A program made the position numbers and the translations under genes. Shown in pieces: positions 3,257 to 4,507 of a stretch of DNA of 4,507 nucleotides. Origin of the DNA: a virus. Lineage: Duplodnaviria; Heunggongvirae; Uroviricota; Caudoviricetes. A model generated the notes under the pieces. That model was not told the DNA's origin. It ran no database searches and worked only from the letters and a program-made list of their open reading frames with translations. The number at the start of each line of letters is the position of its first letter. Position 1 is the first letter of the stretch. Location of the stretch: positions 1 to 4,507 of IMG/VR virus record IMGVR_UViG_2534681831_000024; one strand, 5' to 3'.

Positions 3257-4084
3257 TCAGCTGATACTGATACCTGCTGTGGATTTTTTCATCACCACAA
3301 CCAGCAGATCGCTGATACTGGTTGTTGGTGTCCAGTTATTCGCTCCTGATGAAGATACGGTGAATGTCAGTGTCAGCGTCCCCTGTCCGGCAGGCATATC
3401 TATAACTGAAGAAAATACGCCCTGAGCATCCGTCGTGGACTGATTAAAAATCTCCTGACCATTGCGGGTCACTCTTAACCGGCAGGTTGAATACCGGTAT
3501 GACTGTTGGTTATTACTGTTGAAATTCTCATGCTTACCACCGCGGAATAACACTGGCGGTATCATGACCTGCCGGTCAAACTTCTGATCATCACTGATTC
3601 TTACCGTGATGGTGCCACTGGCATAAGTGCTCGTGCGGGGGAAAGACTTGCTGACCGTTTTGACAATATCGCCTTCAATCTGGTTGGCTGACAGTTTCCC
3701 CTTAATCTGACAGTTCTCATTAATCGTGACGTTGTTGAGCGTCCCTGAGTTCGCATTCACACTGCCACTGATATCCGCATTTTTCGCCGTCAGTCGCCCG
3801 TCCGGCGTCAGGGAAAACGTCGGGGGGTTGCCGGATGACGTGATACTCACCGCAAACAGTCGTTTCAGGAACACGTCGTTCATGAACAGCTGATTCCCCT
3901 GCGCCACAAATAACGGCGTGCTGTTGCCGCTCTCCGGATTTATCATCGCGATACGGTCAGCCAGCAGCAGTATGTTGCTCAGTGGCTGGCCATCAGTATC
4001 CTCAATCCCTGCACCAATCCCGGCCACATAGGGGAATGCCGTCTTTCGTTTTTGTAACCTTTCAGCATGTACAGCGCAGCCAGG
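3257..4084 (-). CDS. Tail tip / host specificity protein (J-like), C-terminal putative receptor-binding segment (third frame segment)
   Basis: Frame open from 4084 (after TGA TGA at 4085-4090) to stop at 3257-3259; the track's 256-aa ORF starts at a GTG (4027) inside it. Ser/Thr/Asn/Gly-rich beta-type sequence ([29 protein letters not shown]...) typical of fibre distal domains. J assignment rests on its position immediately upstream of lom. Confidence 0.5.
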
Positions 4085-4305
4085 TCATCATTTGTGTCCT
4101 TCTGCACGCGCTGTATCTGCTGTATGGTGGCGCTCTGGTTCTCCAGTGTTTTGTTGACCGTCTGTGTGATTTCATTGCGGGTTTCCGTGATGCTGGTCTT
4201 CATCTCCGCCATCTCATCTGCAAGCTGGCTGTTATCTATCAGTTCCCACAACCCCTGAGCCAGATGCAGTTTTCCTATTTTTCCCGGAAAAATTCCAGAT
4301 ACCCT
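3979..4305 (-). CDS. J-like gene, middle frame segment with coiled-coil-like heptad character
   Basis: Frame open from 4305 (after TGA at 4306-4308) to stop at 3979-3981; the track's start at 4251 is a TTG. Sequence ...[76 protein letters not shown]... The first part overlaps the end of the upstream segment and the last part overlaps the start of the downstream segment. Confidence 0.4.
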
Positions 4306-4507
4306 TCACCATCATTGCTGGGCTGCCCGCTGACTTCCACAAACGCAGATTTCCCCACCAGGTTGACGCTGCGCACGTAAAACCAGAAATCCTTCCCGGG
4401 CTTAATGTGCGGGCCGGATACACTCCACTGACTGCCGGTCCCCAGATAACTGGCAGAGGTTTCCACCTGAGATGTGTCTGCGATTTTTGCCTCCGAAAAC
4501 CAGAACT
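4275..4507 (-). CDS. J-like gene, upstream frame segment entering from beyond the window end
   Basis: Frame open from the window edge (first full codon at 4505) to TAG at 4275-4277; the track's start at 4466 is a GTG. Sequence [76 protein letters not shown]. Confidence 0.4.

Follow-up and report, generated by a model that had tools for sequence, protein, structure and literature searches.

In phage lambda, the -1 frameshift between genes G and GT takes place at the slippery heptamer GGGAAAG. It concerns the tail assembly chaperone and is the sole established frameshift in lambda-type tail genes, the gene being G/GT and not J (PMC5009743). A different kind of precedent comes from draft genomes of the DEC collection, where unexplained frameshifts in DEC9A, DEC9E and DEC10D were flagged as possible sequencing errors (PMC5592225). 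As for J itself, the closest complete genomes to the locus considered here are those of the Escherichia coli O111 strains 95NR1, 95JB1 and ‘O111:H8 strain 8B’. Each of the three encodes gpJ in one 3,480-nt ORF (WP_086893277.1), behind which come an intact lom, a tail-fibre gene of 1,323 nt and nleL.

Herein, we describe a prophage-derived stretch of 4,507 bp (hereafter, the window) in which the 3′ part of the same gene is read in pieces. The three-frame J is, with high probability, a sequencing or assembly artefact of a small repeat-derived draft contig, although we infer the error from assembled sequences rather than having seen it in reads. The split is no biological feature, and the real locus is ordinary and intact.

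Source and gene content of the window

The window represents the entire contig AIGG01000040.1 (4,507 bp) of GCA_000249815.2, the 2012 draft assembly of E. coli DEC8B. Assembly 000249815 belongs to E. coli DEC8B, an O111:H8 strain carrying stx1, stx2 and eae (PMC7693793), which was isolated from a human in Idaho in 1986 (PMC2211750). Genes follow each other on the minus strand in the order J (3′ third, last 415 codons), lom, tail-fibre gene, tail-fibre C-terminal-domain gene and the start of nleL. The features downstream of J are as follows:

2591-3190, minus strand: lom, coding for an Ail/Lom outer-membrane beta-barrel; intact, with the same sequence as in the finished genomes
1606-2526, minus strand: tail-fibre (stf-like) gene, frame-broken; the intact form in 95NR1 and 8B has 1,323 nt
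1143-1412, minus strand: tail-fibre C-terminal-domain gene
1-927, minus strand: 5′ part of nleL (first 309 codons), coding for a type III effector E3 ubiquitin ligase with pentapeptide repeats

The nleL gene, cut by the contig end, sits downstream of the tail-fibre genes; an effector behind tail genes is the usual layout of EHEC lambdoid prophages. Between the J stop codon and lom (3215-3238) there is, on the minus strand, a GC-rich hairpin (GGCGTCA...TGACGCC) with a T6 run behind it. This element looks like an intrinsic terminator and is unchanged in the finished genomes. At the opposite edge of the contig, positions 4495-4507 read ...CCAGAACT (minus strand AGTTCTGG), while the finished genomes have GAATTCTGG; this mismatch resembles an error in the terminal base. 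The contig begins within J, probably at the point where the sequence becomes common to other prophages.

One gpJ gene in four segments

Three overlapping minus-strand ORFs lie upstream of lom: 4275-4466 (open to the contig end at 4505), 3979-4251 and 3257-4027. Their frame offsets are 2, 1 and 0, each being -1 relative to the preceding ORF. Peptide mapping to 95NR1 placed them at aa 745-820, 820-893 and 902-1159 of a single 1,159-aa gpJ, which confirms what the initial annotation had recognized from the letters alone, namely a J-like tail-tip gene upstream of lom that is read over three frames. Exact peptide mapping combined with base-level alignment revealed that the frame changes three times and not two, leaving four collinear segments:

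4278-4505, minus strand: J segment 1, aa 745-820, second Ig-like domain, offset 2 (Pfam PF24489 Ig_J_second, 9.6e-27)
4278-4282, minus strand: frame break 1, A5 (plus-strand T5) against A6 in all relatives, making GAA AAA TAG (alignments)
4060-4281, minus strand: J segment 2, aa 820-893, offset 1, inside ORF 3979-4251 (peptide mapping)
4060-4062, minus strand: frame break 2, CTGAAGG to CTGAAAGG, AA to AAA, one base gained (plus-strand T3; alignments)
4049-4055, minus strand: change of no net length, TTCAAAAAAC to TTACAAAAAC (plus-strand T6G to T5GT; alignments)
about 4035-4059, minus strand: J segment 3, aa 894-901, 8 codons, offset 2 again (three-frame translation)
4031-4034, minus strand: frame break 3, ATTCCC to ATTCCCC, CCC to CCCC, one base gained (plus-strand G4; alignments)
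3257-4033, minus strand: J segment 4, aa 902-1159 and the stop codon (3257-3259), offset 0 (Pfam PF09327, PF12421)

The first junction thus lies where it had been placed before, at minus-strand GAA AAA TAG (plus-strand T5, 4278-4282), and relatives carry A6 there. The second junction had been taken for a one-base deletion at the A5 run 4049-4053, and this turned out to be wrong: the change at that position is T6G to T5GT, with no net length change, and the net difference from intact genes around the junction amounts to +2 bases. The exchange of TTCAAAAAAC for TTACAAAAAC converts the codon CAA (Q) to ACA (T), and segment 3 reads VTKTKDGIP in the window versus VQKTKDGIP in the intact protein. 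The final 26 aa of ORF 3979-4251 are out-of-frame nonsense; a Pfam search of this 90-aa ORF returned no match.

Judged by its Pfam domains, its homology to solved structures and its synteny, the gene beneath the split is a typical gpJ family member. Pieces of the window carry Ig_J_second, Phage_Tail_Tip and Ig_GpJ_C in the correct order, and the intact homologue has all six domains (FNIII-A_GpJ, Phage-tail_3, Ig_J, Ig_J_second, Phage_Tail_Tip and Ig_GpJ_C). The C-terminal 415 aa of that homologue match the solved gpJ chains 8iyk_J (E = 4e-118) and 9wca_J (E = 5e-186). Segment 4 corresponds to the tail-tip fibre and the C-terminal receptor-binding domains, and is homologous to lambda gpJ chains such as 8iyk_J. 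Downstream of J, the window has lom and stf; upstream of it, the matching finished loci have K-like and I-like genes. A gpJ is expected to be a single continuous ORF of about 1,130-1,160 codons, and such is J in 95NR1, 8B, CP-1639, DEC4E and further relatives. In the window this ORF has three interruptions, which we attribute to sequence error.

Since gene calling gave ORFs of 63, 90 and 256 aa in this region, one might ask whether they are three separate small genes with independent starts, an option that the initial annotation had also kept in sight. However, the pieces are collinear with the one 1,159-aa gpJ of 95NR1 at 99-100% identity, their borders cut through Pfam domains, and no homologue contains such genes. 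We regard this reading as extremely improbable.

Finished genomes of the same lineage

The record NZ_CP077473.1 is described as ‘O111:H8 strain 8B, Homo sapiens, USA: Idaho’, and its gpJ, lom, stf and nleL are intact, the corresponding stretch being 3149507-3154220. These metadata match those published for DEC8B, so the record very probably represents DEC8B in finished form; the identification follows from name, serotype, host and state, and not from a stated synonym. Over 4.7 kb, 8B and 95NR1 do not differ at all, and the differences of the window from both form one list. Along 4.5 kb, the list holds three substitutions (4506 at the contig end, 3496 and 1667), about seven one-base run-length changes, one swap of adjacent bases and a repeat-bounded loss of 207 bp. 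The small changes fall in two patches of about 250 bp each, 4031-4283 in J and 1489-1760 in stf. In the remaining ~3 kb, which take in the whole of lom and nleL, the window agrees with the finished genomes at every base. As to the runs themselves, the recorded changes are A6 to A5, A2 to A3, C3 to C4, T6G to T5GT, G5 to G4, G4 to G3 and G2 to G1, while the longer runs T8 (1394-1401) and A7 (1506-1512) agree with the finished genomes.

The tail-fibre gene is damaged in a comparable manner. On the plus strand it has lost single bases at 1756-1759 (C4 versus C5), 1623-1625 (C3 versus C4) and 1489 (C versus CC). At 1677-1687, 207 bp are missing in frame inside the collagen-like Gly-X-Y repeats of the gene, with the 11-nt direct repeat GGGGCAACCGG (minus strand) at the borders of the loss; this is either an assembly collapse of the repeat or a real repeat-mediated deletion. 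The substitution at 1667, near this loss, makes the sequence equal to that of a repeat unit lying upstream. The substitution at 3496, in the receptor-binding part of J, changes Trp (TGG in 95NR1, 8B and DEC4E) to Arg (CGG) and could be real or an error.

Taken at face value, such a list would describe a genuine pseudogene, i.e., a decaying cryptic prophage of the DEC8B stock that truly gained frameshifts in J and stf. EHEC genomes do contain many defective lambdoid prophages; finished genomes, too, have neighbouring prophage genes with frameshift annotations, for example the antirepressor gene; and homopolymers are natural slippage hot-spots, the A5 run recurring in a second contig (see below). 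If the breaks were true, this would be another defective prophage of EHEC, a commonplace finding. However, about seven indels against three substitutions, gathered in two 250-bp patches of otherwise identical DNA, do not resemble neutral decay, and the finished genome that is most probably of the same strain is intact. Moreover, none of the 5,426 complete E. coli genomes has the variants of the window, and for the other contig with A5 the finished genome speaks against the shortened run. Overall, we consider true decay unlikely. The preponderance of run-length changes over substitutions, their clustering, their restriction to one draft and the fact that two genes were hit argue for consensus error, not evolution.

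Rarity of the variants

Across 4010-4310, none of the 10 aligned relatives, which range from 99% to ~73% identity (lambda-like phage), shows an indel. The best identity over this region among 5,426 complete E. coli genomes was 98.3%. The exact 71-nt A5 context is absent from these 5,426 genomes, the five records of at least 99% identity to it being probably the five short partial matches; 28-mers spanning breaks 2 and 3 were likewise found in none of them. In an index of 153 billion genes, the 256-aa and 90-aa ORFs each occur in exactly one contig, AIGG01000040.1 itself.

In IMG/VR, site 1 appears in its A6 context in 72 contigs and in its A5 context in one. This one (IMGVR_UViG_2534681934_000031; L012) is a draft contig of 4,435 bp with a different J allele that has 52 substitutions versus 95NR1. 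It matches best, with 99.9% identity, to E. coli O157:H7 DEC4E, whose finished genome has the run as A6 and an intact gpJ. Compared with DEC4E, the draft is short by exactly one A (A6 to A5) and one T (TT to T), at L012 positions 3494-3517. Judging from this 99.9% top match, L012 probably comes from the DEC4E draft and would then belong to the same DEC project. Thus, the same run was shortened in a second draft and is contradicted by a finished genome. An A6 run in the corrected sequence is what the initial annotation had named as the mark of a sequencing artefact; at site 1 the same-lineage finished genomes carry exactly that, and the parallel comparison of draft and finished DEC4E gives the same answer.

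It is also worth mentioning what surrounds the second junction. At 4049-4059, some paralogous J alleles (L008 and L010) read GGTACAGAAAAC, this lineage reads GGTTCAAAAAAC, and the window reads GGTTACAAAAAC. The latter hints at a blend of two alleles, in which case reads from paralogous prophages may have been merged. Site 2 of the window is GGTTACA, and the candidate parent alleles GGTTCA and GGTACA are both present among relatives. In a search of complete genomes for the GGTACA allele, no O111 strain was among the top matches listed, with one place per record.

Ribosomal frameshifting at the first site

The initial annotation had left room for low-level ribosomal frameshifting at the first junction. 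Its starting point, the resemblance to a lysine slippage context, is real; the recoding reading built on it finds no support. According to such a reading, -1 frameshifting, programmed or adventitious, would occur at A_AAA_UAG (4275-4283), with the P-site tRNA-Lys slipping back by one base. Re-pairing from AAA to AAA would be perfect, the shifted frame reads wild-type ...REKIGKLHL..., and a slowly decoded stop codon in the A site generally favours P-site slippage (reviewed in PMC5009743). On the other hand, the zero frame is CGG GAA AAA TAG and contains no X_XXY_YYZ heptamer, leaving single-tRNA re-pairing on A_AAA as the only option. No stimulatory RNA structure was detected in the 90 nt downstream of the site: the minimum free energy is -22.8 kcal/mol (z = -0.89), and 33 of 200 shuffled sequences fold as well.

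Conservation speaks in the same direction. All of the 10 aligned relatives have A6 and one frame, the two-frame arrangement is conserved in no homologue, and J is a single unbroken ORF in every homologue, from the identical ones down to 73% identity. Furthermore, the -1 frame matches J for ~74 codons only and then runs into two more breaks that would require +1 events without any shifty context, so slippage at site 1 would yield no functional J. We give frameshifting as an explanation of the locus hardly any credence.

A combined scenario may also be imagined, in which the frameshifts are real in the sequenced DEC8B culture, and J is inactivated, with low-level -1 slippage in the P site (A_AAA_UAG) producing an extended J fragment. 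It appears very unlikely to us. If it were true, the slippage would be an adventitious translational correction of an indel and would still give no full-length J, given the two further breaks.

Transcriptional slippage was considered separately and rejected: going by general knowledge, an A5 run is too short for it, and the downstream breaks would remain.

How the breaks might have arisen

Coming back to the artefact explanation, which we favour, the following scenario may be proposed. The real locus would be an intact 3,480-nt lambda-type gpJ followed by lom, stf and nleL. The draft consensus would carry wrong homopolymer lengths in two ~250-bp patches, plus a collapsed collagen-like repeat (-207 bp). 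Each miscall would shift the frame, and a gene caller or a reader would then meet overlapping ORFs. The errors would have entered during base-calling or consensus building.

The conversion of T6G to T5GT is the product expected from incomplete extension in flow-based pyrosequencing. DEC drafts were presumably sequenced with 454 and/or Illumina at IGS. Since the T8 and A7 runs are correct, the errors are patchy and not simply driven by run length, and a local cause is needed. The pattern would fit locally thin coverage, or a mixture of reads from paralogous prophages, of which each genome has 5-8 copies.

The case also carries a practical caution. In early drafts, small contigs derived from repeats can give the false appearance of recoding sites or pseudogenes, and an A-run with a stop codon after it invites this mistake in particular. 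Such doubts are soon resolved once the draft is compared with a finished same-lineage genome.

Comparison with known systems

Finally, we would like to return to the systems with which this locus may be compared. The lambda G/GT frameshift likewise belongs to a lambda-type tail gene cluster and has an A-rich context (PMC5009743). Its slippery heptamer is conserved, the arrangement is conserved across phages, and both frames are functional. The J site, unlike G/GT, has neither a heptamer nor conservation, and its new frame is broken again downstream.

Homopolymer miscalls of flow-based drafts offer another parallel: the small differences of the window are all run-length changes (including 0 to 1 and 6 to 5 in T6G to T5GT), and they are clustered, confined to the draft and contradicted by finished genomes. 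Unlike in simple homopolymer miscalling, some of the longer runs in the same contig are correct. Repeat collapse in drafts is likewise matched by the 207-bp loss, bounded as it is by an 11-nt direct repeat within collagen-like repeats.

The gene itself compares with the tip attachment or host-specificity proteins J of lambdoid (Stx-type) prophages, such as WP_086893277.1 of E. coli O111 strains 95NR1 and 8B, and with phage lambda gpJ (PDB 8iyk and others). Unlike in the O111 protein, the J frame is interrupted three times in the window, and the contig ends before the N-terminal 744 aa are reached. Corrected for the three single-base length differences, the window sequence translates to aa 745-1159 of WP_086893277.1, with amino-acid differences limited to Q to T (the CA to AC swap) and W to R (3496), and the two share the same domain order and the same J-lom-stf synteny.
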